From Leucoraja ocellata (lineage: Eukaryota): a stretch of 64,000 bases of DNA. A model generated the notes under the pieces. It had not been told where the DNA came from and did not search any database. It saw only the letters and a list, made by a program, of their open reading frames with translations. The DNA lies in assembly GCA_036785375.1 (NCBI GenBank), contig JAWMAR010000026.1:992001-1056000 (forward strand), read 5' to 3'. Shown one piece after another: positions 438 to 63,694 of this stretch (positions within the stretch are counted from its first letter, which is position 1; each line of letters begins with the position of its first letter). The position numbers were made by a program, and so were the translations under genes.

Positions 438-590
438 AAGTACAAAAATAAGTACTGCTCAAGTATTTTGAGAGTTTAAAAAACATTCTTACATTTTCAC
501 ATATTATACTCATCAGACAATACACGTTGGTGGACAATATGGAATATTTTTGTGAGCAGGTGCTTTACAACTAACATGAATAACAACTAT

Positions 591-880
591 GATAGACACA
601 AAATGCTGGAGTAACTCGGCGGGTCAGGCAGCATCTCTGGTGAAAAGCAGTAGGTGATGTTTCGGGTTGAGACCCTTCTTCTTCCTTTCGTCTGAAGAAG
701 GGTCTTGACCCAAAACATCACCTATTCCTTTTCTCCAGAGATGCTGCCTGACCCAGTGTAGTTATTGTCATGTGTACTGAGATATAGTGAAAAGCTTTTG
801 TTGAGTACTAACCAGTCTGAGTTACTCCAGTAAATTGTATCTATCTTTGGTGTAAACCCGTATCTGCAGTTCCATCCTAC
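591..880. mobile_element. Palindromic Penelope-derived element (inverted arms) containing a short Rex1 3'-end insert at ~755-816
   Basis: Arm gatagacacaaaatgctggagtaactc...gacccttctt is inverted as tctgaagaagggtc...ctgcagttccatcctac. Flanking direct repeat acatgaataacaact (574-588) / acatgaatagtaact (881-895). Confidence 0.75.
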
Positions 881-1069
881 ACATGAATAGTAACTGCACT
901 AGCAACCCTCTAGAGTCATAGAGCTGTACATCATGGAAACTGTCCTTAAACCCATCTTATCCATGCCGACCATATTGGCATTCTGTACTAGTCCTGTTTG
1001 CCTGCATTTGGCCGATACCTTCCTATTCACATATGTCTTTTGAAAGTTGTAATTGTATCCGCTTCTATA

Positions 1070-1383
1070 CATGGGTCGTAGAACCAGGGGACCTGGGGGG
1101 GCTGCAGCCCCTCCACTTTTTTGGTGAGACATGCTTCATAACCCCAAATTATCCAGCCCACAGACGTATTTTTTTCTTCTGCTGAGATCCGACATCCAGA
1201 ATCTCAGAACAAGCGCACAGTGAGCGCGGCAAAACCACGACCAGCCGTGGCGGAAACCGACGGCCCCCCCAAAACCCTCCCTCCCCTCAGCTCAACGGCC
1301 AATCACAGCACGGTTCACAGTCGAGGTATGGGGCAGTGAACGAAGCGATGTAATTAGCCGCCGAGCAGAAGGGAGGGAAGGTG

Positions 1384-1422
<39 letters not shown>

Positions 1423-1667
1423 CGAGAGAGAGCGAGAGTTGGCCTCAAGAGAGAGAGAGAGAGGGGGGAAGGGGGGGTTTGAGGGATATATCCCCCCCAC
1501 TTTTTGAGTTGGGGGATGGCCTGTACTATCCGCTAACTTTTGGAGGTCGAGCAATAACAAAAAATAATCATTGTGCCAACCTCCCACACCCTCCCCCCGA
1601 GGCCAGTGATCAGTGATCGCTCATCCCCCCCCCCCCCCCCACTTTCAAAAACGTTCCACCGTCCCTG
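1070..1667. mobile_element. Non-autonomous hAT-like DNA transposon (MITE)
   Basis: Imperfect TIRs catgggtcgtagaac / gttccaccgtccctg; subterminal cc(c/t)ccacttt motif present three times; interrupts a CR1 fragment; TSD degenerate (cttctata vs ctgctgta). Confidence 0.55.
1386..1462 (+). repeat. (GA)n microsatellite
   Basis: Visible GA run inside the MITE. Confidence 0.9.
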
Positions 1668-1816
1668 CTGTAGATTCCTCTGGCAGCTCATTCTAGATAC
1701 GGATCACGCTCTGAGTGAAAACGCTGCCCCTGTGAGCCTTCTTAAATTTCTCTCCTCTCTCCTTAACCCTATGCCCTCTAGTTTTAGAATCCTCTACCCC
1801 GAGAATGATTGGGCAT

Positions 1817-2881
1817 CAGGGCCGGCCTTAGGAGGTGCGAGGCCCAATTGGGAACAATTTTGGTGAGCCCCAGGTTCCCAGCCAAGGTCTGTAGATTCAT
1901 AGAAATATAATAATTAAAGTCTATTATAGACTTTATAGCTCTATGGTGGAATGGAAAGTAATCAAAATGTGCGCTTAAGAAGTGCATGCAACTTAATGGA
2001 CCAAACAGATCTAAGCTACATTATAATATAAAATTTCATACATGTAAGCCTACAAGTACAAACAAAATGTGTAAATCAACTCTGAAAAGTACAACACCAC
2101 TTGTTTTAGTGACTGTGAAATGAAAAAAAATAAAATTAAATAGATCCTGGAAAACCTATAACCATTGGTGAAAAACCAGTCCAGGCATTAAATGTTGGGC
2201 TTCAGCCCCATCCTACCCTTTGGGCTTCTATCCCATCCTAACCTAGTTGTGTGTGTTAGTTGTCTGTGCATTATGTGTGCGTGGGAGGGAGGGAGAGAAG
2301 GGAGGAAGGACAGAAGGGAGGGAGGGAAGTAGAGAAAGGAGGGAGGGAAGGAGAGAAAGAAGGGATGGAGCGAATGAGAGAAGGGAAAAGAGAGAGGAAG
2401 GAGGGAGGGAAGGAGAGAAGGGAGGGAGGGAAGAAGGGAAGGAGAGAAGGGAGGGAGAGGGCCGGCGTTGGGAGCGGATGTCGGGGTCCGGGCGGACGTG
2501 TGTGAGCTGAGGCCAATGTTTGTAAACCTTGCTCCAGCCCCGGCCCGGCCCAGCCCTCCGTGTATTGTTCACCGCGTCTCCCCGGGGAGAGAAAGAGGGG
2601 TGGGGCCGGGACTGTGTGCGTGAAGCATGGCGACTGGAGGGGCGGGAGCACTGCCGTGAGCGAACGACCCACTCCCCCTCTCCCCCTTCTCTATTCCCCC
2701 TCACACCCTCCTCCCCGTCTATCCCTTTCTTCCCCCTCCACTCCTCTACTCTCTCTCCAACCCTCTCTCCCCCCTCCACCCGGGGTACATCTACCCAATC
2801 CAAATTACTTTAGCACGGGGCCCCCTTACTCGCGGGACCCAATTGGGAGCATTCAGTCCAATCGTCTTAAGGCCGGCCCTG
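1817..2881. mobile_element. Non-autonomous hAT DNA transposon, 1065 bp
   Basis: Perfect 14-bp TIR cagggccggcctta / taaggccggccctg; 8-bp TSD ttgggcat (1809-1816) / ctgggcat (2882-2889); no transposase ORF. Confidence 0.88.
2283..2461 (+). repeat. Polypurine (GGGA/GAAG) low-complexity tract
   Basis: Almost pure A/G for ~180 nt; source of the spurious E/G/R-rich ORFs. Confidence 0.9.
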
Positions 2882-3027
2882 CTGGGCATTCACTTTATCC
2901 ACGCCCCTCATCAGTTTGTTCACCTAAGGTCACCTCTCAGCCTCCTACACGCCAAAGTAAAAAAGTCTTATCTTATCATTCCACTGACGATAACTCAAAC
3001 TGGCAAGTCCAGGTAACATCCTGGTGA

Positions 3028-3121
3028 AGAGAGACACAAAATGCTGCAGTAACTCAGCGGGACAGGCAGCATCTCTGGAGAGAAGAAATGGGTGATGTTT
3101 TGGGTCGAGACCCTTCTTCTG
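3028..3121 (-). mobile_element. Penelope-derived half element
   Basis: gagacacaaaatgctgcagtaactcagcgggacaggcagcatctctggag...gggtcgagacccttcttc. Confidence 0.7.
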
Positions 3122-3374
3122 CACCCTTTCCAACATACTTACTGCAAGGTGGAATTGAGAGGCACAATTAATATTGAATCATTCTAAAATGAAAATAAGT
3201 AATGTGTGTCAAAAGTTTCTAAATTATAACAAACTTGTGTCTGTGCCAAGAGTGTACCATGAGCTTCACTCAGAAACAATAGGTTACGTGATTGTGAGTG
3301 TGTTAGACCTTGGGGATGCTCCTTGATCTCATTGCAAATTAAACTTACTGCTTTGGGAGTTTATGCCAATCCTT

Positions 3375-3750
3375 TTTTTAATTCATTAGTAGGATGCCGA
3401 TGTCATTGGTAAGACTGGCGTCTGCTGATCATCTCTAATAGTCCCAGAAATGAATGGTTGCTTTGGCTTTCACGAGGTCAGTTAAAAGTCATCGACACTG
3501 CAATGGATCTTGAGTCACATATAACCCAGACTGGGTAAGGACTACAGATTTATTATCCTAAGGAACATTAGAGAACCAGATGGGCTTTTACACCAATCCA
3601 GTCATTTCATGGCCAAAATTACTGAGATTAGTTTTTTAATTCCAGATTTATTTAATTACTTGCATTTAAATTTTCCAGCTGTTCGGGTGGGATTTGAAGT
3701 CATGGTTTTGGATCCACTGCAGAAGATTTTGGATATTAGCCCAGCAACTT
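3375..3750 (-). mobile_element. Old tRNA-derived SINE of cartilaginous fish (non-HE1 family)
   Basis: Antisense B-box-like gtgggatttgaa near 3687; body ttttttaattccagatttatttaatt; related degenerate copy at ~18500-18850. Confidence 0.5.
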
Positions 3751-5630: not shown

Positions 5631-5749
5631 TTGCGCACGCCCGTCGAGGCGGTGCGTACGGCCTCAATGTGGCTGCGGGCCAGCAGGACGTTGCCGCGCG
5701 GAATTTTTGGAAAGTGTCAGTTTTTCAGAGCCCCGCGTGATGTCGGGAC

Positions 5750-8641
5750 CATAGAAACATAGAAACATAGAAATTAGGTGCAGGAGTAGGCCATTCGGCC
5801 CTTCGAGCCTGCACCGCCATTCAATAGGATCATGGCTGATCATCCAACTCAGTATCCCGTACCTGCCTTCTCTCCATACCCCCTGATCCCCTTAGCCACA
5901 AGGGCCACATCTAACTCCCTCTTAAATATAGCCAATGAACTGGCCTCAACTATCCTCTGTGGCAGAGAGTTCCAGAGATTCATCACTCTCTGTGTGAAAA
6001 AAGTTTTTCTCATCTCGGTTTTGAAGGATTTCCCCCTTATCCTTAAGCTGTGACCCTTTGTCCTGGACTTCCCCAACATCGGGAACAATCTTCCTGCATC
6101 TAGCCTGTCCAACCCCTTAAGAATTTTGTAAGTTTCTATAAGATCCCCTTTCACTCACCTAAATTCTAGAGAGTATAAACCAAGTCTATCCAGTCTTTCT
6201 TCATAAGACAGTCCTGACATCCCAGGAATCAGTCTGGTGAACCTTCTCTGCACTCCCTCTATGGCAATAATGTCCTTCCTCAGATTTGGAGACCAAAACT
6301 GTATGCAATACTCCAGGTGTGGTCTCACCAAGATCCTGTACAACTGCAGTAGAACCTCCCTGCTCCTATACTCAAATCCTTTTGCTATGAAAGCTAACAT
6401 ACCATTCACTTTCTTCACTGCCTGCTACACCTGCATGCTTACTTTCAATGACTGGTGTACCATGACACCCAGGTCTCGCTGCCTCTCCCCTTTTCCTAAT
6501 CGGCCACCATTTAGATCATAGTCTGCTTTCCTGTTTTTGCCACCAAAATGGATAACCTCACATTTATCCACATTATACTGCATCTACCAATCATTTGCCC
6601 ACTCACCCAGCCAATCCAAGTCACCTTGCAGTCTCCTAGCATCCTCCTCACCGCTAACACTGCCTCCCACTTAGCGTCTTCCGCAAGCTTGGAGATATTG
6701 CCTTCAATTCCCTCATCCAGATCATTAATATATATTGTAAATAGCTGGGGTCCCAGCACTGAGCCTTGCGGTACCCCACTAGTCACTGCCCGCCATTGTG
6801 AAAAGGACCCGTTTACTCCTACTCTTTGCTTCCTGTTTGTCAGCCAGTTCTCTATCCACATCAATACTGAACCCCCAATGCCGTGTGCTTTAAGTTTGTA
6901 TACTAATCTCTTATGTGAGACCTTGTTGAAAGCCTTCTGGAAGTCCAGATACACCATATCCACTGGTTCTCCCCTATCCACGCTACTAGTTACATCCTCG
7001 AAAAATTCTATAAGATTCGTCAGACATGATTTACCTTTCGAAAATCCATGCTGATTTTGTCCAATGATTTCACCACTTTCCAAATGTGCTGCTATCCCAT
7101 TTTAATAACTGACTCTAGTTGTTTCTCCACTACCGATGTTAGACTAACTGGTCTGTAATTCCCCGTTTTCTCCCTCCCTCCCTTCTTAAAAAGTGGGGTT
7201 ACGTTTGCTACCCGCCAATTCTCAGGAACTACTCCAGAATCTAAAGAGTTTTGAAAGATTATTACTAATGCATCCACTATTTCTGGAGCTACTTCCTTAA
7301 GTACTCTGGGATGCAGCCTATCTGGCCCTGGGGATTTATCGGCCTTTAATCCATTCAATTTACCCAACACCACTTCCCGACTAACCTGGATTTCACTCAA
7401 TTCCTCCAACTCCTTTGACCCGCGGTCCCCTGCTATTTCCGGCAGATTATTTATGTCTTCCTTAGTGAAGACGGAACCAAAGTAGTTATTCAATCGGTCC
7501 GCCATATCCTTGTTCCCCTTGATCAACTCACCTGTTTCTGACTGCAATGGACCTACATTTGTTTTAACTAATCTCTTTCTTTTCACATATCTATAAAAAC
7601 TTTTGCAGTCAGTTTTTATGTTCCCTGCCAGTTTTCTTTCATAATCATTTTTTCCTTTCCTAATTAAGCCCTTTGTCCTCCTCTGCTGGTCTCTGAATTT
7701 CTCCCAGTCCTCTGGTATGCTGCTTTTTTCTGGCTAATTTGTACGCATCATCCTTCGCTTTGATACTATCCCTGATTTCCCTTGTTATCCACGGATGCAC
7801 TACCTTCCCTGATTTATTCTTTTGCCAAACTGGGATGAACAATTTTTGTAGTTCATCCATGCAGTCTTTAAATGTCTTCCATTGCATATCCACCGTCAAC
7901 CCTTTTAGAATTAATTGCCAGTCAATCTTGGCCAATTCACGTCTCATACCCTCAAAGTTACATTTCTTTAAGTTCAGAACCATTGTTTCTGAATTAACAA
8001 TGTCACTCTCCATCCTAATGAAGAACTCAACCATATTATGGTCACTCTTGCCCAAGGGGGCACATACAACAAGACTGCTAACTAACCCTTCCTCATTACT
8101 CAATACCCAGTCTAAAATAGCCTGCTCTCTCGTTGGTTCCTCTACATGTTGATTTAGATAACTATCCCGCATACATTCCAAGAAATCCTCTTCCTCAGCA
8201 CCCCTGCCAATTTGATTCACCCAATCTATATGTAGATTGAAGTCACCCATTATAACTGTTTTGACTTTGTCGCACGCATTTCTAATTTTCTGTTTGATAC
8301 CATCTCCAACTTCACTACTACTGTTAGGTACCCTGTACACAACACCCACCAGCGTTTTCTGCCCCTTAGTGTTTCGCAACTCTACCCATACCGATTCCAC
8401 ATCCTCCAAACTAATGTCCTTCCTTTCCATTGCATTAATCTCCTCTCTAACCAGCAACGCTACCCCACCTCCTTTTCCTTTCTCTCTATCCCTCCTGAAT
8501 ATTGAATATCCCTGGATGTTCAACTCCCAGCCTTGGTCACCCTGGAGCCATGTCTCCATGATCCCAACTATATCATAATCATTAATGGCTATCTGCACGT
8601 TCAACTCATCCACCTTATTACGAACACTCCTTGCATTGAGA
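5750..8641 (-). mobile_element. 5'-truncated CR1 LINE, ~2.9 kb, young subfamily with (CTATGTTT)n tail
   Basis: catagaaa x3 tail at 5750; complete ORF2-derived sequence; gacca at both junctions (5747-5751 and 8640-8644). Confidence 0.95.
5849..8640 (-). pseudogene. Disrupted CR1 ORF2 (AP endonuclease + reverse transcriptase)
   Basis: EN motifs LNARS, ETW, GVVYR, MGDFN, LDWV, SDH. RT motifs [36 protein letters not shown]. Catalytic FADD has decayed to LAED; the ORF is broken into five pieces by frameshifts. Confidence 0.93.
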
Positions 8642-8879
8642 CCAGCTCCGCACAACTCCATACGGCTCCGGCGATCGAAGTTGGACCGGCCCCACAAGGC
8701 CGTACGGCTCAAGCGACCACGTTAGGTTGCGCTTGCTGCATGTAGTCGCATACTCGTGGGACAGGCCCTTTAGAATTTCATTGTTCTGCTTTTGGTACAT
8801 TTGACAATTAAACACTCCTGAGTCGTGACTCTTGACGATTTGAAAACTACTGTAATTGTCTCCACTTCCATCATCTCGC

Positions 8880-9625
8880 GAAATGCCACAGTTTTTTGCA
8901 GCTAATGAAGTGTCTTCACCATCATCATGTAGGAATCACGGCAGCCATTTTGTGCACAGTAAGCTCCCATGGGTAAACGTGACTGATTCATCTGATTTTA
9001 AAGGTGTTGAATGCGAGATAAGTACTGGTCTGAACAATCGGGCAACTCTTCAATCTGCTGCAAAGTGTCCTCTGCACCTTTAGAGACTTTAGAGGTACAA
9101 AATGGAAACAGGCCTACCCAGTCCATGCCGACCAGCGATCACCCCATGAACTAACACTACCCTACACACGAGGGACAATTTACGATTTTTTACCAAAGCC
9201 AATTAACCTACAATCCTATACGTATTTGGAATGTGGGAGGAAACCGGAGCACCTGGAGAAAACCCACGAGGTCACAGGGAGAACGTACAAACTCCGTACA
9301 GGCAGCACCAGTAGTCAGGATCAAACCCAGGTTTCTGCTGCTGTAAGGCAGCAACTCTACCACTGTCCCACCTTTGGGAAAGCAGCCTCCTACTTGAGAA
9401 AGCTGAACATCACATGCCTAAGGATACAAAGTGCAATGCTACTTAAGTACTGCATTATGATATATGTGTCTAGATTTTCCGCTGTCGAGCTACTTCAGGG
9501 AGAATCCCTTTTCGTACACACAGCAGCCATGGAATCTTGTAGATCTACCAAAGACCGCAGACAAAACCTCACTGCGACGTTTGATCCAAAGAGCCGCACC
9601 TCTGACTGCGCAACAACCCTTGACA
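8880..9625 (-). mobile_element. Very old Deu-domain-like SINE relic interrupted by an HE1 copy
   Basis: Antisense tail tgtaggaatcacggcagccattttgtgcacagtaagctccca (~8928-8969) and core gacgtttgatccaaagagccgcacctctgactgcgca (~9576-9612). Confidence 0.35.
9078..9372 (-). mobile_element. HE1-type V-SINE
   Basis: tRNA-like head, V-core (gtgggaggaaaccggagcacctggagaaaacccac) and CR1-derived tail. Confidence 0.88.
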
Positions 9626-11948: not shown

Positions 11949-12087
11949 ACTTAAGAACATTAATTTATTTTCATTAACTGATGATATCAAACCATTTAAG
12001 CATGTTTGACTCTCACCACACAATCCTCATCTGTGAATCCAAAATCACTATTCTGTCAGCTCTGTGGCAAAGTTATTTGGTCCACGA

Positions 12088-12399
12088 TTTAGACATTAGA
12101 CTTTAGAGATACAGCACGGAAACAGGCCCTTCGGCCCACCGAGTCTGTGCTGACCAGCAATCACCCCGTACGCTAGCACTATCCTACACACCAAGGAGAA
12201 TTTACGATTTCACTGGAGTCAATTATCCTACAAACCTGCACATCTTTGATGTGTGGAAGAAAACCGGAGCACCTGGAGAAAACTCACTTGGTCACAGGGA
12301 GAATATTAAAGTTCTGTACAAACTGCACCCGTAGTCAGGATCGAACCCGGGTTTCTGGAGCTGTAAGGTAGTAACTATCACTGTGACACTGTGCCACCC
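12088..12399 (-). mobile_element. HE1-type V-SINE
   Basis: Full head-core-tail match to other copies. Confidence 0.88.
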
Positions 12400-12539
12400 T
12401 GAAACGACTAAGACAGAGTAACAATTGCATTTGACACAAATCTGTAAAGTTATATCACTTTATTTGGGTATTCTGTTATTGTCTGTTTGTTCATTAGGGT
12501 TGATTGAGGTGGGTTCATTATGTTCATTGTTTGTTCAAG

Positions 12540-13290: not shown

Positions 13291-13490
13291 ACGAGATATA
13301 GTGAAAAGCTTTTCTTTGCGTGCTATCCAGTAAAAAAAAGACTTTACATGAATACAATCAAGCCGTCACTGTGCACAGATAAAGGATAATGGGCACATTA
13401 TTTAGTGCAAGATGTAACATTAAGTCTGATAAAATCCGATTTAAAAAAGTTCAAAGATCTCCAATGAGGTAGATGGGAGGTCGGGACAGG
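13291..13490 (-). mobile_element. Rex1/Babar LINE 3'UTR fragment
   Basis: gagatatagtgaaaagctttt...ctccaatgaggtagatgggagg; same family as 57243-57770. Confidence 0.7.
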
Positions 13491-13494: not shown

Positions 13495-13650
13495 TGGCCG
13501 ATTACCCTCCAGGCTTGGTCCTGCCTCTCCTCTGTCCCAACTTCCTACCCCCACTATCAGTCTGAAGAAGGTTCCAACCCAAAACGTCACGTATCTATGT
13601 TCTCCAGAGATGCTGCCTGATCTGCTGACTTACTCCAAGACTTTGTGACC
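13495..13650 (+). mobile_element. Penelope-derived 3' end
   Basis: cagtctgaagaaggttccaacccaaaacgtcac...gatgctgcctgatctgctgacttactcca. Confidence 0.7.
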
Positions 13651-14544
13651 TTCTTTTTTCAAAGAACCAAGAAGCTCGCTTCTCAATATTATTAACAGAC
13701 CACACACCAGACCGGCCCAGTGTAGCACAGCATGGGCGTTCAGCATGTGTTCTCAGCAGTGCATGAAGTGCACTGTTGGAGGTGCCCTTATACCCTTTGC
13801 ATGGATGTAGCCAGGCCCCTGAACAGTGTATCTTGTAAACTTGTACATGATGTCATACGGATGGTTTGCGCTGTTCATTCAATCTTGTTTATGTGCGACT
13901 TGAAGGTTGATGGCTGTAACAGATTGTGATGGCAATCTCCAGTGCATACACTGTGTTGCCTGCCAGCTCCGATAATGTCATTCATCCCTGGCGTTGTTCT
14001 GCGATTCGCTTCACATGGCAGCAGTTCATGCTGATGGAATGTGCACCAGAGCTCCCTTGAAAAATATCCCTAAACTCATTGACAGTAAATGCATTACAGA
14101 AATTAACCTTTCCTTTTGGGGAGGGAAAATAAAGATAATTAATTTCACAGTGCATAAATTTAGAGTGAGCTGTGATTTGATTTTGCTGTTCATTTGTGGT
14201 CAAACACAAACAAACACAAATTGGAGGGGTGGAGTTTCCTCTCAGGGGAGTTTAAGGCAGGCTTCATTTTTGGAATTCACATTGTTTTGCTGTGTAAAAT
14301 TGGTACTGTAACAGATTTTGACATCCTTTAAATGGTGATGTCAGGTCCAAATACTTGTACATTTAAATCACTCACTTGAGATCTGTTTTTTGCTGTTTTA
14401 ACAAATGGGATAATGCCCCTGTGAAGAGTAGATGTTTGCTCAATTGAAATAATAGTACCAAGGGTCATTTCCTGGCTGGAGCTTTGAAATGGGGATGAGG
14501 CAACAAGTTTATTGTTATATGTGCAAGTACGCTCTTTAAAACCT

Positions 14545-16680: not shown

Positions 16681-16993
16681 ACTTTATTTTAGACTAGAGA
16701 TACAGCCCGGAAACAGACCCTTCAGCCCAGCAAGACCGCTCCGACCAGCGTTCACTCCATACACAAACAGTGTCGTACACACTTAGGGACATTTTTTACA
16801 ACCTACTTACGCCAATTAACCTACAATCCTACACATCTTTGGAACGTGGGAGGAAACCGGAGCACCCGGAGAAAACCCATGCAGTCACAGGGAGAATGTA
16901 CAAACTCTGTATAGACAGCACCTGTAGTCAGGATCGAACCCTGGTCTCTAGTGCTGTAAGGCATCAACTCTACCGCTGCATCACTGTGCTGCC
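16681..16993 (-). mobile_element. HE1-type V-SINE
   Basis: Full head-core-tail match. Confidence 0.88.
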
Positions 16994-17399
16994 GTTTCTG
17001 AGTAAAATTCCCATCAACAAAAAAATTGGTCAAGGGAACAGGTATTTTTATGAAAAACTTGTAGAACCAGCTCTGCCATTTGGAAAGGTTGAGAATGGAT
17101 GTGGGCCAAACATGGGCAAATAGGGCTAGATTAGAATGGGCGTCTTGGTCAGCATGGGCGATTTGGGCTGAAGGACCTATTTCCGTACTGTATGACTATG
17201 GCTCAATTTTCACACCTGTCTGCTTCCTGTCATAGGACAAACTGACATTAAGAATTCCTTAAGTTACTCAACATCAGGGGCATAAAAAAAGTTAAATCTG
17301 AAATTGGCAGTAGCTTAATGCGCTGGAATGAGTTTTAAAACTCAGACTAAAAAAATATATGAAATCATGATATAATGCATTAAAACATGCACCAAACAC

Positions 17400-21430: not shown

Positions 21431-21703
21431 CTAATTCTTCTGTTATGGAATGCCCCTGGATGCAATGCCTCTAGGTGCAATTCGAGGGTGGAACAAGGAA
21501 TCAGATGTGTCTTCTGGCTGGAAATCAGTGCAATCCAACCCAATATTTTTTTTAAGTTACACTACTCTGCGAAGAGGGGCCAGTGGATGAAACTTGCCAG
21601 TGATATAAACCTGCCGACTGAATGACAAAGAAAAATTGTGGAGACAAAATCTGACGAATGTTGTCTAAAATCGGGAGAGATTGAGCAGGCTGGGACACAA
21701 TTC

Positions 21704-22714
21704 TGGGTATCGCAAGGCTCGGTGCTGGGACCACAGCTATTTACAATATACATCAAAGATTTGAATGAAGGGATTCAAAATAACATTAGCAAATTTTCAG
21801 ATGAAACAAAGCTGGGTGGCAGTGTGAACTGTGAGGAGGATGCTATGAGAATGCAGGGTGACTTGGACAGGTTGGGGGAGTGGGCAGATGCATGGCAGAT
21901 GAAGTTTAATATAGATACATGTGAGGTTATCCACTTTGGTATCAAAAACAGGAAGGAAGATTACTATCTAAATAGCATCAAGTTGGGAAAGGGGGAAGTA
22001 CAACGGGGTCTGGGGGTCCTTGTTCATCAGTATATGAAAGTAGGCATGCAGGTACAGCAGGCAGTGAAGAAAGCAAATGGCATTTATAACAAGAGGAGTC
22101 GAGTATAGGAGCAAAGAGGTCCTTCTGCAGCTGCACAGAGCCCAGAGACCACACCTAGAGTATTGTATGCAGTTTTGGTCCCCTAATTTGAGGAAGGACA
22201 TTCTTGCTATTGAGGGAGTGCAGCGTAGGTTTACAAGGTTAATTCCCGGGATGGCGGGACTGTCATATGCTGAGAGAATGGAGCGGCTGGGCTTGTACAC
22301 TCTGGAGTTTAGAAGGATGAGAGAGAATCTTATGGAAACATATAAGATTGTTAAGGGTTTGGACAGGCTAGAGGCAGGAAACATGTTCCCGATGTTGGGG
22401 GAGTCCAGGGGCCACAGTTTAAGAATAAGGGGTAAGCCATTTAGAATGGAGCCGAGGAACCACTTTTTCTCACAGAGAATTGTGAGTGTGGAGTTCTCTG
22501 CCTCAGAGGGCAGTGGAGGCCGGTTCTCTGGATACTTTCAAGAGAGAGCTAGATAAGGCTCTTAAAGATAGCGCAGTCAGGGGATATGGGGAGAAGGCAG
22601 GAATTGGGTACTGATTGGGGATGATCAGCCATGATCACATTGAATGGTGGTGCTGGCTCGAAGGGTCAAATGGCCTACTCCTGCACCTATTGTCTATTGT
22701 CTATTGTCTATTGT
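21704..22714 (+). mobile_element. 5'-truncated CR1 (RT C-terminal half to tail)
   Basis: [38 protein letters not shown]; frameshifted; (ctattgt)4 tail. Confidence 0.93.
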
Positions 22715-22716
22715 CA

Positions 22717-24527: not shown

Positions 24528-24864
24528 GATAGGTACTGGATACCCTAAAAGGTGTACTGCCAAGTGAGAAGACATTGTTCCCACTGGTATACCAAGATCC
24601 AGATTTGATCACAACTTCCAATTCATTAATGAGAGAACGTGTATTAAAATCCATGGGTTACCTGCACTCTCTGTTGATTGGGAGTTGCCTGGGCAGCCAG
24701 TCCCAGGTAATGATCGTCAAAGCTCCCTGTGGACGCATAAAATAGGGGGTATTAGTGCAAAACTGCTGATGTCCTGCAAACCTCTGCTAGTGTTGCCATT
24801 TCTGATTGGGTGCATTGGAGGTTTCATCGCATGATCCTCCCATCCACTGCCCTATCAAGTTTGG

Positions 24865-25200
24865 GGGAACTGGATAGGCGACGTTTCAGGTCAGGACCCT
24901 TCCTCAGACTCATTGTAGTAGGGGGTTGAAAGCTGGGAAAGAGTAGTGGTGGGGGCAGGAAACATAGCCTGGCAAGTGCTCGATGGACACAGGTGAGGAG
25001 AGAGGGAGGGGGGTTCATTGGCAGATGAGTGGGCCAAGTGACAAAAGCTAGAGATGCAAATGAGACAACAGGGTGTCACATATGGAGAGATGAGGGCTGA
25101 AATGTAAAGCCAGAGGGAGGGACTTAGGTGTGAAACATCGCTTATGCCTTTCCCTCCACAGATGCTGACTGACCTGCTGAGTTACTCTGGCACTTTGTGG
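24865..25200 (-). mobile_element. Penelope-derived element with 3'UTR body and short inverted arm
   Basis: Antisense agtctgaggaagggtcctgacctgaaacgtcgcc plus purine-rich body; sense arm tgaaacatcgc...gagttactctggcactttgtg at ~25131-25199. Confidence 0.7.
24880..24907 (-). ncRNA. Minimal hammerhead-ribozyme-like core (best-preserved copy in the window)
   Basis: Minus strand reads CUGAGGA-A-GGGU(CCUG)ACCU-GAAA-CG-UC: core boxes, stem II, palindromic ACGU stem III and GUC site. Stem I is only ~2 bp, so activity is unproven. Confidence 0.5.
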
Positions 25201-25599
25201 ATCCATCAAGCTAAATAACCTTTTTTTTTTAAAGAAATCTATTAACGGATATTATTAAAATTAAATGTTGTAAATCTTGGTTTTTTTTATAATCCATTAT
25301 GATTTTTGTCAGGGATTGATTGCAGTGATCAGGAAATTTAGTTTGAATTCCTGGATAGTACAATGCATTCTTGAGTGGCTGGTAAATGTACTGTCCATCT
25401 GGTAGCACCAGAATGACCACATTAAACTCCCGACCGCATCAAAACAGTTCTTGATTAAAACATCCTGAATTCGATCTTAAAACGGTAGTTTCCAGTCTTC
25501 CATTTGTTTTCCATCTCTAGTTTCCTCTAAACTGCTGAGCTATAGCCTTGATTTTCAGAATTGTTACTGTAAAGAAGGAGGTTATTCAGCTGATTAAGA

Positions 25600-27396: not shown

Positions 27397-27835
27397 TTCA
27401 GTTCAGTTTAGTTTAGTGTAGTTTAGTTTAGTTTATTGCCACATGTACTGAGGTACAGTGAAAAGCTTTTTGTTGCCTGTCCAATCAGCGGAAAGACTAT
27501 ACATGATGACAATCCATAGTGTACAGGTGCACGATAAAGGGAATAATGTTTAGTGCAGGTTAAAGTCTAGTAAAAACCAATTAAAGACAGTCTGAGGGCC
27601 TCAAATGAGGTAGGTGGTAGCTCAGGTCCGCTCTCTAATTGTTGATAGGATGACAGTTGCCTGATGACAGCTTAGATGAAACTGTTTTTGAATCTGGAGG
27701 TGTGCATTTTTGCACTTCTGTACCTCTTGCCTGATGGGAGAGAGGAGAAGAAGGAGTGATTGGGGTGAGACTCATCCTTGATTATGCTGGTGGCCTTGCC
27801 GAAGCATCGTGAAATGTAGATGGAGCCAATGGATT
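27397..27835 (-). mobile_element. Rex1/Babar LINE 3' end
   Basis: Translates SRCFGKATSIIKDESHPNHSFFSSLPSGKRYRS..TSRFKNSF (Rex1-type C-terminus); (aaact)n tail. Confidence 0.85.
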
Positions 27836-28371
27836 CAAGCCTTCGCAACACTTTAATATAAGGACGTAGATATTTAGATTGGATATAAGGAATGGTCACC
27901 TCTTGTGCTTCTGTCACTGGTTGGCAGTCAATGATAAGAAGGCAGTTGGCTGAAAATTGAAATGTCCTGTTCACTCACCAAAAAAAGCTGAACACTATAC
28001 TTTTAATCAGAAAAAAAAAATTGATGTTCAGTATGCTGCACGCTGCAATATGGTTAACATAGTAAAATGCCCCAAGGTTTTTCACAGAAACCCATACCTC
28101 AGCGGCTAAGCCTATTTTTAGGTTGAAGTGATGTGTGCAAGGTGCTGAGTTTTATATATAGAATTACATTGCCACTGCGACCCGCAGGCTTTTCTTAACA
28201 CATGGGATTGAGTGCCATCAACTGTTTGACTCGGACATCTTTCCTGATGTACAAGAAAATGTCTCAGCCATTGCTTTAAGTTAACACAGATAGTTAACTT
28301 CTGGCAATTACAAGTCTTACCCTAGAGAACTGATGTCACCTATTACTCCGACTATTAATACCAACAAAAAA

Positions 28372-28563
28372 AAGATACAAAGTGCTGGAGTAACTCAGCG
28401 GATCAGGCAGCATCTCTGGAGAACATGGATAGACATTGTTTCGGGTCAGGACCCTTCATCAGTCAGATCCGATATGTCGCCTGTCCATGTTCTCCAGAGA
28501 TGGTGCCTGACCTGCTGAGTTACACCAGCACTTTGTGCCTTTATTTTGTTATCCAGCATCTGC
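28372..28563. mobile_element. Palindromic Penelope-derived element
   Basis: agatacaaagtgctggagtaactcagcgg is inverted as cctgctgagttacaccagcactttgtg. Confidence 0.75.
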
Positions 28564-29020
28564 CTTCATTATTACTAATAAGAAGTGCTTTCCGGGATTC
28601 AAAACATTGCACACGTGAATGAACAAATGAGAGGAGAAAGATTGGATTTTGTTTGAATCTAAGCGTGGATTTATCCTGCTAAAAAAACAGGTATGTAGGA
28701 ATCAAATATGCATACTGCCTGGCAACAAGTTTTACTTTTCAATTAAAATAATTCCTGCTCTTTTATATTTCGTTAAATCATTCCTTTTTCTGCTGATTTT
28801 AAGAATGGGATGGTTTTAACTGATGCAGGCACCAGAAAACAATGATAGCCAAAGATAAGGCCTGATTCCAAATATAATTATAACTGCATTGAACAAGAAA
28901 TCACATGGTCTCTCAGAAAACATGAATGCCAGTATTTGAATTAATTTGAGTATGTATAAATATATTTGATATTTGATATTTCATAACTCTGAACACAAGC
29001 TTCCTTAATTTTAGTTTGGA

Positions 29021-30263: not shown

Positions 30264-31336
30264 TGGGGTGAACCTTCTGATTCTGTCCTGTATGACTCTA
30301 TGATTATGATTGCAGATGTTGGAATCACGATAAAAAAACAAACTGCTGGAAGAACTGAGCACATCAGGCAGCAGCAGAACTGCTGAGCTCCTCCAGCAGT
30401 TTGCTTTTTGCAATGGGCTGTAATGCATTGGTCACAGGTCAAAAGCATTAACTGATATTCCATCTTAGTAAAGCCAATGTAACTCAATGTTGTGTGTGAA
30501 GCTTTAAATGAAATAGCTTGCATTTGCATAACACCGTTAGGACCAATACGTGCTTTTAAAGTGTGGTTGTTCAAAGAGTTGTCACAGTGCAAACTCCCAC
30601 CAAATGTCATGTGATAATGACCAGTTAGTATCTTCATATGATGTTGACTGAGATGTAAGTATTGGTGAGGCGACTGGCACGAAACCCCTGCTCTGTTTCA
30701 ATATTTATATCCAGCTGAGGTTTCGTTCAGTCACTATGAAGAGGGGTCCAGGCCCAAAACGTCACCTAGCCTTTTCCTCCAGAAAAGCTGCCTGACCCAA
30801 TGAGTTACTCCAGCACTTTGTGTTTATCTTTAGTTTAGTTAAGTTTGTTTTAGTTTAAAGATACAGCAATGAAACAGGCCCTTTGACCCACCAAGTCCAG
30901 ACTGACACTTGATCACCCGTTCACAACTAGTTTCTGCGGGTTTGACATTGGCCTCATTAGCCACCCGCCAGCTCCCAGTGGATATCACAGTGGTGCCCCT
31001 TCTAGAGCAGCTGCCTCATAGCTCCAGCAATCTGACTTCCCCTGATGACTGTGTGGAGCTTGCATATTATCCCTGTGACCACGTGGGTTTCTCTCAGGTG
31101 GTTCAGTTTCCTCTCGCATCCCAAAGCAAATAGGTTAATTGGCCATGATAAGTTGCCCCGAGTGTGTAGCTGAAGAAGATGTGGGAGAACACGTTGCAGT
31201 AAAAATATGAGGGGAAATTAAATTGCTCGGTGAGCCAGCATAGAGTCGATGGGCCAAAACCGCCCTCCTTCAATGTTATAAGGTCGTTGTAATATAGAAG
31301 TTGAATTAGAGGGGACCTAATTATCCTTGAACCTTG

Positions 31337-36752: not shown

Positions 36753-36936
36753 TGTGTAGGAAAGAACTGCAGATGCTGGTATACACCGAAGATAGACACA
36801 AAATGCTGGAGCAACTCAGCGGGTCAGCCAGCATCTCTGGAGAAAAGAAATAGGAGACGTTTCAGATCCGAAGAAGGGTCTCGACCCGAAATGTCACTTA
36901 TTTCTATTCTCCAGAGATGCTCATTGTCCCACTGAA
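36753..36936. mobile_element. Palindromic Penelope-derived element with 13-bp TSD
   Basis: TSD ttaaataaactta at 36740-36752 and 36937-36949; inverted arms. Confidence 0.85.
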
Positions 36937-37235
36937 TTAAATAAACTTAAGTTGCTCACCATTTATTGTTGCAGTTCTGAGTCTCTGAGAAGGTAATGCC
37001 CTTCACTGACACTGCAGCCCTGCACATCCCAATTTTGGGCACCCCTGCTGGATAAATATGATCATCAACATATATGACAGATTTTCTCAACATTATCTCA
37101 AGTACATTATTTTTGGATGGGAAATCAGTATTGCATGTGCTACCCTTAGAAGCACTTACAGATGCACCATTGGATGCATTCTGTTGGGTTACATCGCAGC
37201 TTAGGTTTAAAATAGCTCTGCCCAAGACCACAATA

Positions 37236-39990: not shown

Positions 39991-41134
39991 CCCTGTTTAT
40001 ACTGTATTTAATATTATTATTCAGACTGGAATAGTGTTGCAGTTTTTAACTTCACAAATATTCATCCAAACATTAATCAATGTTTTAACCATTTTCGCAA
40101 AATCAACTATATTTTACTTGTACCATGCTTTCGAATGCATTTCTACTGGCAACTTTCCAGAGAGGAAGGAAATTACCAGCAAACCATAGGTGTAGTCTTT
40201 GAAGGCTTTTAATTGTTGCGTAATTGATCAGCTGCACATTATCTCTTGAGGAAACACGGACCTCAGAGACTTCAGTAGTTGCTTAACCCACAATATTTTG
40301 AGCAGCAACGTGCAAATGTGTTTTATGTACTGTTAGAACAGACTACAGGACAGTAACATGCTTCTAGGGAGCTTTGCTCTTTCAAAAAAAAAAAAAAAAA
40401 ATAGAGTGCACTTGCCAATGTGATGAATGTTAATGCTAGTAAAAGGCAGAAGATCATCTTTCTTTGCAGGCAGTCCCAGTTGCCAGCCTTCTTTGGTCAG
40501 GTATAACATGGATTAGTTGCAGGGCAAAATTCACATTATGCTGCTCTAATCAAGCATTTTCCTTGTTTTGCCTGTGGAATATTTCAATCCCCTGCATCCG
40601 CTATGCTTGAATGCTGAATTATTGGCAGCTTGATGCTGCAAATTCAAAGCAGGTAATGGGTGAAAGGGCCAAAAGCGGAATGGCAGCAGGTTCGAAAGGA
40701 TTTTAACAGGGCAATGCACACTAAGAAATAACAGTTTGTGAATGCCAAATCTGTCCAATTCATTCTCCTCTCACCCCTAATAGTGAAATTAAGTTCCCCT
40801 TTCCCGGCAGTGATATCTTCTACTGCACCTAACACTGACACGTGGTTCCAGTACAGATTACAGCTCCTCAGTATTGCAGGGATATCCTCTTAGCACTGCA
40901 TCAGTGTCAGATAGCATGTCACTGCATCAGTGTTACATTATTGAGATGCCTGTGGGAGAGAGAGAGTTTAACTGATGAACTAAATTCACTGCTTCGCTGC
41001 TGTGCTGCCTAACATGGGGAGAGAAAATAAAAGAGGCTGATACATCACCTGCTCACTGCCACAAGTGTGGACCATTTTCTCATGTAGCAGGCAGCAAAGG
41101 TTCAGAGATAGAAACAAAGTGTTTTGTTTAAATA

Positions 41135-41517
41135 TGTAGGAACGAACTCCAGATGCTGGTTTAAACCGAAGATAGACACAAAAAGCTTGAGTAATTGGAG
41201 TCAGGATGTTTTCAGTTGGTACCCTTCTTCAGACTGGAGATGCTGCTTGACCCGCTGAGTTACTCCAGCACTTATGTGTCTATCTAAGAATTTAGTTTAG
41301 TTTAGTTTAGAGATACAGCATGGAAACGGGCCCTTCAGCCCATCGAATCCATGCCGACTAGCCATCCCCACACACTTGCACTATCTTACACACACTAGGA
41401 ATAATTTATAATTTTAACAAAGCCAGTTAACCTATAAACCTGTACATCTTTGAGGTATGGGATGAAACCGGAGCTCCCAACAAAAACCCATGCAAGTCAC
41501 AGGGAGAACGTACAAAC
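41135..41517. mobile_element. Palindromic Penelope-derived element (41135-41285) abutting an HE1 SINE 3' part (-, 41291-41517)
   Basis: tgtaggaacgaactccagatgctggtttaaacc arm and its inverted arm; tttagtttagtttagagatacagc tail. Confidence 0.78.
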
Positions 41518-42917: not shown

Positions 42918-43013
42918 AGTCTGAAGAAGGGTTTCGGCCTGAAATGTTGCCTATTTCCTTCGCTCCATAGATGCTGCTGCACCCGTTGAGTTTCTCCTGC
43001 ATTTTTGTGTACC
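42918..43013 (+). mobile_element. 96-bp solo Penelope-derived unit with 15-bp TSD
   Basis: ttgcacaaagatcaa at 42903-42917 and 43014-43028; starts agtctgaagaagggtttcggcctgaaatgttg. Confidence 0.85.
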
Positions 43014-46980: not shown

Positions 46981-47308
46981 GGGTGGCACAGTGGAACAGA
47001 GGTAGAGTTTGCTGGCTTACAGCGCCAGAGACCCAGGTTCGATCCTAACTACAGGTGCTGTTTGTATGGAGATTGTATGTTCTCCCTGGGACCGAGGGGA
47101 TTTCTCCGGGTGCTCCGGTTTCCTCCCACATCCCAAAGACGTGCAACTTTGTAGGTTAATTGACTTCTGCAAATTGCACGTTGTTCCCAGTGTGTAGGAT
47201 TGCGCTTGAGTATGGCGTGATTTCTGGTCGGCGCGGACTCGTCGGGCCGAAGGTAGGTAGACTAGGTAGACTGAAGGGCCCGTTTCGGCTTTGTATCTCT
47301 AGTCTAAA
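46981..47308 (+). mobile_element. HE1-type V-SINE
   Basis: Head with B box aggttcgatcc; V-core; tail. Confidence 0.88.
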
Positions 47309-48502: not shown

Positions 48503-49033
48503 TAGTTTAATTTAATTTAGTTTAGAGATACTGCGTGGAAACAAGCACTCCGGCAAGCTAAGTCCACGCCAACCAGTGATCACTCATACACTGGGATTAT
48601 TCTACACAGTAGAGATATGTTCCAGAAGCCAATTAACCTGCAAACCTGCCTGTGTCAGAAGGAACTGCAAATGTTGTTGTATGTGGAAGATAGACACAAA
48701 AGCTGGAGGAACTCAGCAGGTCAGGCAGCATCTCTGGTGAAAAGGAATTGGTTTGGGATGGAACCCTTTTCAGATCAAAGATTGAAGAAAGGTTCTGGCC
48801 TTATAGGTCACCTATTCCTTTTTCCAGTGATGCTGCCTGACCCGCTGAGTCATTCCAGAATTTTGTGTCTACAAACTGGCGCATATTTGGAAATGGGAGG
48901 AACCGGGAGCACCCGGAAAAATCCACGCGGTCACAGGATGAACATACAAACTCCTTACAGATAGCACCCATAGACACGATTGAACCCGGGTCTCTGACAC
49001 TGTCAGGCAGAAACTCTACCGCTGCGCCACTGT
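48503..49033 (-). mobile_element. HE1-type SINE interrupted by a palindromic Penelope-derived element (48651-48868)
   Basis: SINE is co-linear across the insert; degenerate TSD ctgcaaacctgc / ctacaaactggc. Confidence 0.82.
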
Positions 49034-49399: not shown

Positions 49400-49765
49400 T
49401 TAGAGTTTAGTTTATCATCACAGTTATCGACGTACAGTGATAAGCTATTGTTGCGTGCTAACCAGTCAGCGGAAAGAGGATACATTGTTACAATCAAGAC
49501 GTCCACAGTGTACAAATCAATGATAAAGAGAATGAGGTGAATAACGTTTAGTGCAAGATAAAGCCCAGTAAAGTCCGATCAAAGATAGTCGGAGGGTCTT
49601 CACTGATGTAGATAGTAGCTCAGGACAACTCACTAGGTAGGATGGTTCATTTTTCTGATAATAGCTGGGAAGAAATTGTCCCTGAATCTGGAGGTGTGCT
49701 TTTTCACACTTCTATACCTTTTGCCCGATGGGAGAGGAGAGAAAGGGAGTGGCCAGGCTTGATGG
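49400..49765 (-). mobile_element. Rex1 3' end
   Basis: FSPLPSGKRYRSVKKHTSRFRDNFFPAIIR. Confidence 0.85.
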
Positions 49766-52020: not shown

Positions 52021-53099
52021 ACACATGCCTCTGGAACGGATATGGAACTGAAGCAAAAAACAAATCAAACTTGATTGAAATGAAAACACCCAAAGGGCAT
52101 GATGAAGGTTGTGAGCACAACAAACTCATCTCATAAAGGTTTCTTGGAATCAATGTTAATATCAAATTTTGAATATAAACATTTTATGCTATTTCAAGCC
52201 AAACTAAAGATGAAAGCTCAAGGCTTGTTTTGCTTAATCATCGCATGTGAATTGTACGTTGTGGAGCCAATGAGGAATAGGATGTTTTAAAAAATATATT
52301 GGATTGTGCTATTAGCAAGAATAATTAAGGGTCCTTTTTTTAGGGAAGAGAGATTATAATATTATAGAATTTAATACAACGATCGAATAAGATTTAGTTT
52401 AATCTGAAACAAGAGTCTTGAATCTAAACAAAGCAAACTATGGAAGCAGATACAGAAGAAGTTGTTGAGGCAACATCTAAAAGACATTCAGACAGGTATG
52501 TGGATTGGAAACATTATGAATGATACAGGTCAAATATGGTAAGTGGGACCAGCTTGGATGGGGCATCTTTGATGAGTTGGCTGGATGGGCCTGATGTATG
52601 ACTCCATTACTCTGATTCTAAAAACCACAATCAAGTGAATCCATAACCCATACCCTCTGGAATGCCAACAGAAGGCTTCTATGGTTAAAAAAAAGTCCTT
52701 TACCGGACAAGAAGAAACGTTTCAGGGAGATACAAGAGACTATAAATGCTGAAATCTTGAGCAAAATAAAAACAACCTGCTGGAGGAACTCAGCCTGCAT
52801 CAGAAGTGCAAAATGGACAATTAATGTTTTGGGAAAAGTCCCTTCCTCTGTTTCACTAATTGTGAAATCATGGTTCAACTCCAGTTCTTCATAAAATCTA
52901 TCATCTCATTGTCTTCCTGCAGGAGATTCACTGGGGATGTTGCCACACAGAGCAACGTGATGAACATGCACCCAGAGCTGTGATAGAACACGAGAGGCAA
53001 CACTTCTTGTTTACTTTAATGCTACACAAGTCTTTTAGAAGATGCATATCTATGAATGAAAGACTTTTATTCGACCTTCCAAGTTATTGCAGTGCTCTT

Positions 53100-56489: not shown

Positions 56490-57130
56490 GAGATTCTGAG
56501 AAATATTTTTTTTACCCCCGGAGGGTGGTTACAATCTGGAATGCACTGCCTGATAGGTTTGTGGAGACAGGAACTCTCACAATACTTCACACGCATCTGG
56601 GCGATCACATGTATGGCCAATGTGTAGAAGGTGACAAACCAAGTGCTGGCAAATGGGATTCGGACAGAATGTCACTTGATGGTTGGAAACATACAAAATG
56701 CTGGAGTTAATCAGCGGGTCAGGCGGCATCCATGGAGAACATGGATGGGTGACGTTTCGAGTCGAGGCCATTCTTCGGACTGATTGTAGGTGGGGGGGGG
56801 AGGGAAGGGAAAGCTGGAAAAGAGAGATGGAGTGGGGGTGGGACAAAGCCTGGCAAGTGGTAGCTGGAAAAAAGACACAAAGTGCCTGAGTTACTCAACG
56901 GATCAGGCAGCATCCCTGGAGCACGTGGATGGGTGATGTTTTGAGTTGGGACCTTTCTTCAAACCCGAAAGTCACCTACGCATGTTCTCCAGGGATGATA
57001 CTTGACCCATTTAGTTAATCCAGCGTTTTGTATCATTCCTTGGTAAACTAGCATCTGCAGTTGCTTGCTTCTATTCGATGGTTGGTAAGTCTGTGCTCGG
57101 GTTTAGTGCCTGTATCTCTGCTGCTCTATC
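56490..57130. mobile_element. Old CR1 3' end (+) interrupted by compound Penelope-derived elements (56688-57075)
   Basis: gatggttgg repeated at 56678 and 57077 on either side of the insert. Confidence 0.72.
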
Positions 57131-57242
57131 TTCCAGGTAAGGCAACTATAGGAATACTTAATATATTACATTTAATTTGTTTGAAATATTAGGCATGTAT
57201 TAGAAAGATGTTTTTTTAACAAAGAAAAATGTCTCCAGGTAA

Positions 57243-57770
57243 TTTAGTTTAGTTTAGTTTATTGTCACGTGTACCAAGGTGCAAGGAAAACCTGTTGTTG
57301 CATGCTAACCAGTCAGCTGAAAAACAATACATGATTATAATCAGTTGTCCACTGTGTACGATACATGATAAAGAGATTAACATGAATAACGTTTAGTGCA
57401 AAATAAAGTCCAGTAAAGTCCAATCAAAGATAACCAAGGGTCTCCAATGAGGTAGATAGTAGTTCATGACTGTGCTCTAGTTGTTGGTAGGATGGTTCAG
57501 TTGCCTGATAACAGCTGGGAAGAAACTTTCCCTGAGTCTGGAGGTGTACGTTTTCACACTTCTATAACCTTTGCCTAATGGGATAGTGGAGAAGAGAGTG
57601 TGGCCAGGGTGCGGCTCATCCTTGATTCTGCTGGTGGTCTTGCTGAGTCAGCGTGAGGAAGGGAGGTCGGTTTGTGTGATGCTCTGGGCTGCGTCCACAA
57701 TTCTCTGCAATTTCTTGGATGGAGCTGTTCCAAAGCCATGCAGTGATGCATCACGATAAAATGCTTACTA
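57243..57770 (-). mobile_element. Rex1/Babar LINE 3' end
   Basis: tttagtttagtttagtttattgtcacgtgtacc tail; body as in 27397-27835. Confidence 0.85.
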
Positions 57771-58836: not shown

Positions 58837-59549
58837 GCATGCCCAGCAAAATCATCAGCAAAATTGACCATGAACCAAAGCAGACAGTGTGGGCAAGCTG
58901 ATTGATTGTGAAAAGTGTAGTAGCTGAACTTTAATCCAAACGAGTACTCTCACACACATCATACAACAAACAGAAAAATAGGAGTAGACTATTACTAGTT
59001 GTAGAATATCTCACAAACGTTGATGGTTAAAAATGAAACATTTAAGGTCTTGTTGCATTTTGTGCATAAAATAAGCAGCAAAGTGATCAGCAAGCCAGGG
59101 CCACAATCCATAAATCTTTCCTAATAAATCCCACCCAAACAGTTTGCGAATTCAGCCTTATATATTATAAAAAATGACTGTACATCTGCTAATTGTGGTA
59201 AGACAACAATAGTTTCACATTTACTGTTTCTTTGTATAGGAAGGAAATACAGATGCTGGTTTATACATGCAAAAATATAGTCACATATTGCTGGAGTAAC
59301 ACAACAGGTCAGGCAGCATCTCTGGAGAACATGGATAGGTAATGTTGTGGGTTGGGACACTTATTTATTGTAAGGGATGGGTGTTCATAAGTTCGTAAGA
59401 TGTAGGAGCAGAATTAGGTCCATCAGGGAGAATAGGTGACGTTTTGGGTTGGAAACCTTCTTCAGACTTGTTTTCTTTACTCCTTGCTTGATTAGTTTGA
59501 AATTGTCTAAAGAAAACGATTATGCCACTGATCTGAACAGTTAACATGT

Positions 59550-59769
59550 GTAGGAAGGATTTGCAGATGCTGGTTTAAACTGAAGATAGACACAAAATGC
59601 TGGAGTAACTCAGTGGGATAGGCAGCATCTCTGGAGAAAAGGAATGGGTGACATTTTTAGGTCAAGGCCCTTGTTTAGAAGAAGGATCTCGGCCCGAAAC
59701 GTCACCCATTCCTTCTCTCCAAGTCTGTCTGTCCCACTGAGTTACTCCAGCAGTTTGTGTCTATGACTA
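59550..59769. mobile_element. Palindromic Penelope-derived element with perfect 16-bp TSD
   Basis: tgaacagttaacatgt at 59534-59549 and 59770-59785; inverted arms; further half elements at 59236-59365 and 59425-59468. Confidence 0.88.
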
Positions 59770-60674
59770 TGAACAGTTAACATGTTCTCTTTTCATTGAA
59801 CTGCCTGAATGCCTGCGTTTCCAGCATTTATTGGGGGGGGGTTCTGATTTCCAGCAATGGCAGTGTTTTGCCATTGCAATATTGCAGTAAACCACTGCAT
59901 TGTTGCAATTGGGCTCAAGGGATGGGCATTAAATGTTGGTCTTTCCAATAATTAATTAAAATAATATGCATGCAAATGCCCAGCAGAAATCACTAGAAAT
60001 TAATGAGTAATAAATCCCTGAATAACTGTTTTCCTCACCATAGCTCAAGGGCATTATCATTAGTTGTAGGTCTCCCACAATCATTCAGGATCTGAACCAC
60101 TGTTCAGTTAGTCCATTGCATGGACATGGCTTTCTTCAACTTCATTTTTAAGTTGACCACTCATATCTGAACATTCTCAATTACAAAAAAACAAATCAAC
60201 TTCCCTCTCTGTGCCCTCTTGTTAAATTAGTCACTTTTCTTCCTCATGGAGGGAATGCCAAAGACCCGAGGACAGAGCATTAAGGTGAACATCTCTTCAA
60301 TGACAGTTTGGAAGGTTGTCCACACTCAATCACAGTGATCATTATTTATCATCAATATTCTGGCTTGACATAACCCAGCAGAATAAAGATGCTACTGCCT
60401 CTTATTATCTAAAATTAATTGCACAAAGTGGTGCAATATACTGTAACTGTTTTTTTTCCTTTCCACTATTCAACAACTCTACACATTTACAGGCAGTATG
60501 TTATTTTCAGAAGGAGTGGAAAAAGGGACATTGCATGTGTTAGATTCTGGGAAATTTAACAACATCCAGTCTTGTGTCATGTACACAAAGCAAAAAACTG
60601 TTCTGAGTCACTGACCAAAGAACTAAAGCTCTCCAGTGAGTCAACACTTGATCTCTGCTATGAAAAAACTTGAG

Positions 60675-63600: not shown

Positions 63601-63694
63601 CATATAGTCACTGCAATTCCAGAACGGCAAATTTCTCACCATTTCTGCAGAGCGCTCACCTTTTCAGTTCTAAATGAAGGACCATGATATCGTA

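Follow-up and report, generated by a model that had tools for sequence, protein, structure and literature searches.

Minimal type I hammerhead ribozymes (min-HHRs) are known from the pseudo-LTRs (pLTRs) of metazoan Penelope-like elements (PLEs) in about 40 animal species, and the survey that catalogs them describes minimal hammerheads as inactive when monomeric and as having low activity when dimeric (PMC4209133). Insertions of endonuclease-bearing PLEs, as characterized in PMC8557442 and PMC3846280, show 5' truncation, partial tandems, an adjacent inverted 5'-truncated copy and solo pLTRs, with tails of 30–40 bp that are often found at one end only and target duplications of 8–10 bp; for the inverted arms, Arkhipova et al. 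2013 prefer self-priming on an antisense template (PMC3846280). In the Poseidon element PAc of Anolis, two internal start sites of reverse transcription, 85–92 nt past the hammerhead cut, define the tail; the main template is uncut RNA, the hammerhead cleaves only with protein, and hammerhead mutants transposed normally in vitro in the experiments reported there (PMC11167929). The Penelope pLTR is also described as holding an internal promoter and Naiads as thriving without hammerheads, and animal retrozymes, including one from a chondrichthyan, are characterized as non-autonomous PLE derivatives (bioRxiv 10.64898/2026.07.22.740005).

We analyzed a 64-kb stretch of Leucoraja ocellata DNA from contig JAWMAR010000026.1 (the window), which is AT-leaning and CpG-depleted (observed/expected 0.41). 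We consider it very probable that the motif at 24880–24907 on its minus strand is a minimal type I hammerhead in the end (pLTR plus tail) of an endonuclease-bearing PLE, and that the copies of this family are decayed fragments derived from uncut RNA. A literature search on Penelope hammerheads, on sharks and skates and on twin priming, which covered few subscription papers and did not extend to Repbase, found neither this family nor the two-primer model considered below described.

The motif at 24880–24907 and its core

The sequence at 24880–24907(-) has a complete CUGANGA core, an extra A, a 4-bp stem II (24899–24896 with 24891–24888), GAAA and CG-UC, with C3 at 24907 and C17 at 24880. Its ACGU palindrome lies at 24884–24881 and the predicted cut falls between 24880 and 24879; positions in the family are numbered from this predicted cut after GUC. 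Including the stem I flanks, the motif extends over 24877–24910(-). The initial annotation had given stem I 2–3 bp, and very short it is, but only two pairs form (here U2.1-G1.1 and G2.2-C1.2) and mismatches follow. The main arm of the insertion, 24860–25124(-), is 69% identical to 60718–60976 and consists of ~230 nt of pyrimidine-rich upstream sequence, likely a pLTR, followed by the hammerhead and by a tail that ends early, at +20. Head-to-head with it stands an inverted arm, a short end running from about -9 to +65 (25131–25205(+)); the unit, the tenth inverted pair examined, has one short arm and one truncated arm.

Alone among the 26 copies that span the core, the 24880 copy has all core letters together with the ACGU palindrome, which could be taken to mean that it has been exapted and cuts a host RNA. 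We find this scarcely credible: its conserved G10.1-C11.1 pair has been replaced by G10.1-U11.1 via CpG decay, its active-dimer fold lies 14.3 kcal/mol above two monomers versus 4.9 for the family majority, its inverted neighbor is unable to act as a same-strand partner, and one near-intact survivor is expected among 26 copies. All core letters were intact in four of the 26 aligned copies, one of these having a stem II insertion, none of the 26 core-spanning copies was fully intact, and copies in the window likely do not cut host RNA.

Across the family the majority letters fit CUGANGA...GAAA...UH, in type I order, at every core position, and the motif equals the consensus of the 56 metazoan motifs aligned by Cervera and De la Pena (CUGANGAH, G...C, GAAAN, palindrome, NUH; PMC4209133 Fig. 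S3), which upholds the earlier assignment to minimal type I hammerheads of the PLE kind. Common to the family and the min-HHRs of that source are type I order, an extra nucleotide before stem II, G10.1-C11.1, a palindromic 15.2/16.2 and a short helix I, and the min-HHR copies described there are likewise mostly single and dispersed. The nearest rows are those of Culex (2-bp helix I) and of the Acropora Neptune element (4-bp stem II), although the Culex and Drosophila rows have two G-C pairs in helix I and thereby a stronger helix than the window family, with its one U-A and one G-C pair. No cartilaginous-fish row was present among the min-HHR rows compared (PMC4209133), and the window family is without an ORF in the window. 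The extra A between positions 9 and 10.1, which had been pointed out before, was found in 28 of 29 copies, while the 10.1-11.1 pair was G-C in 18 and G-U in six of 31. Palindrome 15.2-16.2 has the majority ACGU (C in 26/37 and G in 24/38 copies, other letters being mostly CpG transitions), and the two pairs of stem I were U-A or U-G in 17/23 copies and G-C or G-U in 15/21. Stem II had been described as retained; its pairing is indeed kept, but the changes we saw were one-sided wobbles only, with no recurrent double-sided change within the family copies.

One might suppose that the tail of an unrelated SINE or LINE fits so short a hammerhead pattern by accident: however many copies it has, the family counts as a single observation in evolution, and a search of the window with Rfam covariance models returned eight matches at E ≤ 10, none of them a hammerhead (the MIR2118 matches were inverted pairs). 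We strongly disfavor such a chance resemblance and regard it as very improbable, since a strict minimal-hammerhead descriptor matched three window sites versus 0.07 expected per shuffled 64 kb (30 dinucleotide shuffles, maximum 1), independent PLE hallmarks surround the motif, and conservation is higher in the core than in the tail. A relaxed descriptor matched 12 window sites versus 2.5 expected by shuffles.

Conservation was calculated from copies within the 64-kb window. Identity at non-CpG core positions was 273/288, with a mean of 0.939 versus 0.842 at base-matched tail positions; the best-conserved part of the tail reached 0.884, and none of 20,000 draws reached the core value. Since 129 of 133 interior core positions were identical, alignment-edge bias is not the cause of the high core identity. 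Copies decay neutrally once inserted, so it is the recurrent variants, which mark source lineages, that carry the signal; these occurred at none of 10 core sites versus 17 of 57 tail sites (one-sided p 0.041, a modest value). That the core is less variable than the adjacent repeat, as the hammerhead reading had anticipated, fits selection in the source elements. Recurrent non-CpG changes in the motif were confined to loop II, to H17 (C to U) and to pairs of stem II and stem I that went from U-A to U-G. Most of the damage had been ascribed to CpG decay, which is the largest single class of in-motif mismatches yet, at 63 of 157 (40%), accounts for under half of them. G12 was changed to A in 16 of 35 copies.

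A more serious alternative, to which we give an appreciable though clearly smaller chance, is that the motif is catalytically vestigial, its core having been kept as a promoter, for protein binding, for RNA pairing or by descent; this would be compatible with a PLE origin. Stem I is 2 bp, yet the positions that are fixed are the catalytic ones, and the recurrent non-CpG changes are confined to the few kinds just listed. As single strands none of five folded window copies formed a hammerhead or gave a significant z-score, which is expected without stem III. For the window majority, the active-dimer fold is less stable than the cofold minimum by 14.7 kcal/mol, a gap exceeding that of about four fifths of 94 metagenome examples, whereas against two monomers the dimer's 4.9 kcal/mol is mid-range (metagenome median 6.3). 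The transposing Anolis mutants and the Naiads introduced above also speak for a vestigial motif; against it, the Anolis motif cleaves when protein is added, as described in PMC11167929. In RNA reads from a related organism (two runs, 1–5% of each) we saw the family on both strands and no pile-up of molecule starts or ends; given the library type and the small share of reads mapped, this is a weak test, and we give it no weight as evidence. Cleavage is demonstrated for PAc (PMC11167929) and predicted only, from sequence, for the window family; by analogy with tested relatives alone, the ancestral RNA would have cleaved itself.

Copies in the window and their ends

Iterated profile searches of the window gave 45 matches, and 47 with a longer model, these being arms and pieces and not 47 separate insertions. 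Self-BLAST coverage in the window peaks at this family (33–34, versus 20–22 for the next one), in agreement with its earlier description as one of the most abundant short repeats, and the seven copies singled out in the initial annotation, as well as the 42918/62966 subfamily, were all present at or within 1–2 nt of where it had placed them. Copies measure 95–370 nt and are decayed, nearly all of them ORF-less stubs.

There were 10 inverted head-to-head pairs, and two units with an additional direct partial copy. Inverted pairs lie at 580–883 (short arm 580–685(-); long arm 678–883(+), split by ~58 nt of foreign sequence and scored as long across this interruption), 28364–28575 (short arm (-), long arm (+)), 36753–36939 (long arm (-), truncated arm (+), with a 16-bp flanking direct repeat with one mismatch), and, each with a long arm (-) and a short arm (+), at 41134–41286, 48650–48872 and 59545–59768, the last with an 18-bp direct repeat with one mismatch. 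At 56689–57073 two short-ended copies (-) in partial tandem are joined by an inverted long-tailed arm (+), with a 12-bp direct repeat with one mismatch, and at 60670–61158 a partial tandem (upstream region, hammerhead 60736–60763 and short end, then a second short copy) is likewise accompanied by an inverted long-tailed arm. In the copy at 13496–13657(+) a damaged hammerhead (13562–13588) stands between ~90 nt of upstream region and a short end; a single copy of the UUCG-loop subfamily, 42918–43013(+), starts exactly at -31 and has a perfect 15-bp flanking direct repeat. The core of the 62966 copy lacks 3 nt, and that of the 36868 copy carries U4C. Within 63692–64000 a younger inverted pair (63799–63978) interrupts an older copy at its hammerhead, where 14 bp spanning the cut-site region of that copy are duplicated; this fits insertion of a PLE into its own pLTR. 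Diverged relatives of the tail at 30306–30409, itself a short inverted pair, and at 52726–52855 likely represent an older or separate subfamily.

The family layout is a pyrimidine-rich upstream region extending to about -260, the motif from -28 to -1 and ~63 nt of body, which an optional stretch of ~38 nt may prolong. The 3' ends are bimodal, ~38 nt apart: 21 of the 47 matches end at +56 to +77 and 17 at +100 to +106, with three in between and six shorter, so that two ends are favored, near +63 and near +103. Among 5' ends, 27 of 47 fall at -42 to -21, eight at -15 to -7 and seven further in, with four beyond -100; two copies begin exactly at -31. Of the 47, only one comes as close as 6 nt to the predicted cut, and one end at -9 belongs to a copy split by a later insertion and is no true end. 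With a single end near the cut, the inserted copies likely derive from uncut RNA, as in the Anolis PLE.

The concentration of 5' ends at -42 to -21, and the exact -31 start of the copy with the perfect 15-bp duplication, would also suit a self-standing non-autonomous element of 95–135 nt, SINE-like or retrozyme-like, that begins at the hammerhead and whose short masters were copied by a PLE protein in trans; the retrozymes described as PLE derivatives, one of them chondrichthyan, lend this some plausibility. We nonetheless think it quite unlikely, as four of the 47 matches run 116–260 nt upstream with sequence in common, several subfamilies have the identical boundary, and the whole motif is retained instead of a start at the cut. 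Non-LTR retrozymes and the window family are both non-coding and hammerhead-bearing, but the retrozymes are defined by tandem arrays (bioRxiv 10.64898/2026.07.22.740005), whereas head-to-tail tandem arrays are absent here: units have at most two direct partial copies, and copies are mostly dispersed or inverted. Read depth in the DNA runs X1 and X4 was 30–307 times as high over the hammerhead as over the upstream region, and although depth is not copy number, this ratio makes 5' truncation at the same point likely genome-wide.

The arms of a pair are unequal. Exactly one long arm was present in nine of the 10 inverted pairs and two long arms in none (p 0.011), and in five of the nine pairs having a long arm neither arm was contained in the other. 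Both arms had 29 of 142 non-majority sites in common, versus a mean share of 0.10 when arms were re-paired (none of 1774 re-pairings reached the observed value), and both arms therefore likely came from one source. Direct repeats of 12–18 bp abutted five of 22 units tested, the other 17 having no qualifying repeat, versus six of 300 in a control. Truncation, tandems, an inverted arm, a tail at one end, solo pLTRs and target duplications are thus found in the window family as in the PLE units described in PMC8557442 and PMC3846280; the window family differs from those descriptions in its stubs of 95–370 nt, its duplications of 12–18 bp and the piling of its 5' ends at the front of the hammerhead.

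We also observed that in long-tailed copies about +19 to +26 can pair with about +79 to +87 of the optional tail in an 8–9-bp helix (e.g., 36753–36855(-) and 59546–59650(-)). This helix formed in two of five folded copies, with similar pairing in two more (best z -2.2), and as a folding prediction it could set the start sites of reverse transcription.

Several other repeats share the window. LINE remnants with RVT_1 and Exo_endo_phos domains occur at 5747–8721(-), where endonuclease and reverse transcriptase frames extend over ~3 kb, and at 21626–22715(+); we take both to be CR1-like. A second dispersed family, SINE-like, of ~300 bp and 70–77% identity, is found at 9084–9372, 12072–12401, 16683–16996 and ~20 more places. 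There is a weak tRNA match at 46990–47050, and ARAGORN found no tRNA in the window. Members of a third family (350–420 bp; 27407–27833, 49404–49757, 57240–57717) start after TTTAG repeats; related sequence lies at 13293–13485, and the 58 nt inside the 678–883 arm appear similar by eye. At 1180–1400 a short stretch rich in CpG precedes a GA microsatellite and is possibly promoter-like.

Metagenome relatives and the search for a linked ORF

A core-pattern scan found 123 metagenome loci in nine of 64 collection parts, and the 122 loci analyzed contained 127 matches in 101 distinct contexts; the scan pattern was derived from the window motif, and these matches have the same motif pattern and not the family sequence. 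At the H position, which lay outside the scan pattern, C, U or A was found in 99 of the 101 contexts. Stem I, likewise outside the pattern, had at least two pairs in 87 of 101 contexts versus 47.8 on re-pairing, and was 3–6 bp long in 75 of 101 examples versus 2 bp in the window family. Thirty-five of the 127 matches lay no more than 600 nt downstream of the end of a PLE ORF (RT/GIY-YIG) on the same strand, 34 of them within 66–164 nt; of the remainder, four had a PLE match elsewhere and the rest were without any.

One locus, L005, contains a complete PLE unit (1061–3608) with an inverted arm, an RT/GIY-YIG frame of 595 aa with a CxxC linker, and a hammerhead 133 nt past the frame end. The Pfam matches of this ORF to RVT_1 (E-value 5.4e-5) and GIY-YIG (0.001) were both under the curated cut-offs, and the unit can serve as a reference for the Neptune-like layout. 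Two further loci, L037 and L044, have head-to-head stubs as in the window.

The profile of the window family itself matched none of the 122 metagenome loci. Within the window, tblastn with six PLE peptides found no remnant of a PLE ORF (best E-value 0.30), and scans of metagenome, viral and genome contig collections with the family pattern gave no match and no locus joining the family to an ORF. It is layout and motif, and not a joined ORF, that make the window family a likely member of the PLEs.

A model of insertion and the value of the family

On our preferred reading, that the copies are fragments of a PLE end inserted from uncut RNA, the RT/GIY-YIG protein of the element would nick AT-rich DNA and reverse transcription would begin at either of two internal positions 3' of the hammerhead, the two 3' ends being either such start sites or ends trimmed by the endonuclease. 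Reverse transcription would mostly pass the cut site and halt 20–40 nt further upstream, likely on reaching the 5' end of the RNA; transcription may start where the 5' ends gather, near -31. The hammerhead of the source element likely cut weakly after GUH, either assisted by protein or in dimers joined at the ACGU palindrome, and such weak cleavage would explain a fixed core beside a diverging loop II and tail. An initiator-like TCAGTCT lies at the point three bases ahead of C3, the initiator consensus being YYANWYY. We rejected this sequence as independent support, as 17 of 106 metagenome contexts carry such an initiator-like motif at the corresponding position, roughly the number expected from their base composition.

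PAc and the window family are alike, so far as PMC11167929 describes the former, in their two 3' sites beyond the hammerhead, uncut template, lack of ends at the cut site, AT-rich targets and insertion into the element's own pLTR. They differ in that the PAc ORF starts in stem II, where the window family has no start codon, and in the position of the ends (about +63 and +103 in the window versus +85 to +92 in PAc).

We also considered a more speculative scheme, which we think unlikely, in which each nicked strand is primed separately, at +63 or +103, with two uncut pLTR RNAs as templates that the ACGU dimer helix keeps paired, the hammerhead then being a pairing scaffold or cap-proximal switch more than a processing ribozyme. 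Both cDNAs would run off at the RNA 5' end beside TCAGTCT, and the 2-bp stem I would be explained too. The arms that are not nested in five of nine pairs fit two priming events better than fold-back of a cDNA, which needs later trimming.

Whichever way the arms arise, the feature presented as notable in the initial annotation is likely the ordinary pLTR end of an element of known class, and as a ribozyme discovery it has little weight, because minimal hammerheads in PLE ends are already published. What is new is a family, likely of a cartilaginous fish, in which stem I is unusually short. Its value is as a natural data set, being a very abundant family with sharp paired ends, and it could be used to test how PLEs make their inverted arms and tails, and what role the hammerhead plays when the template is uncut.
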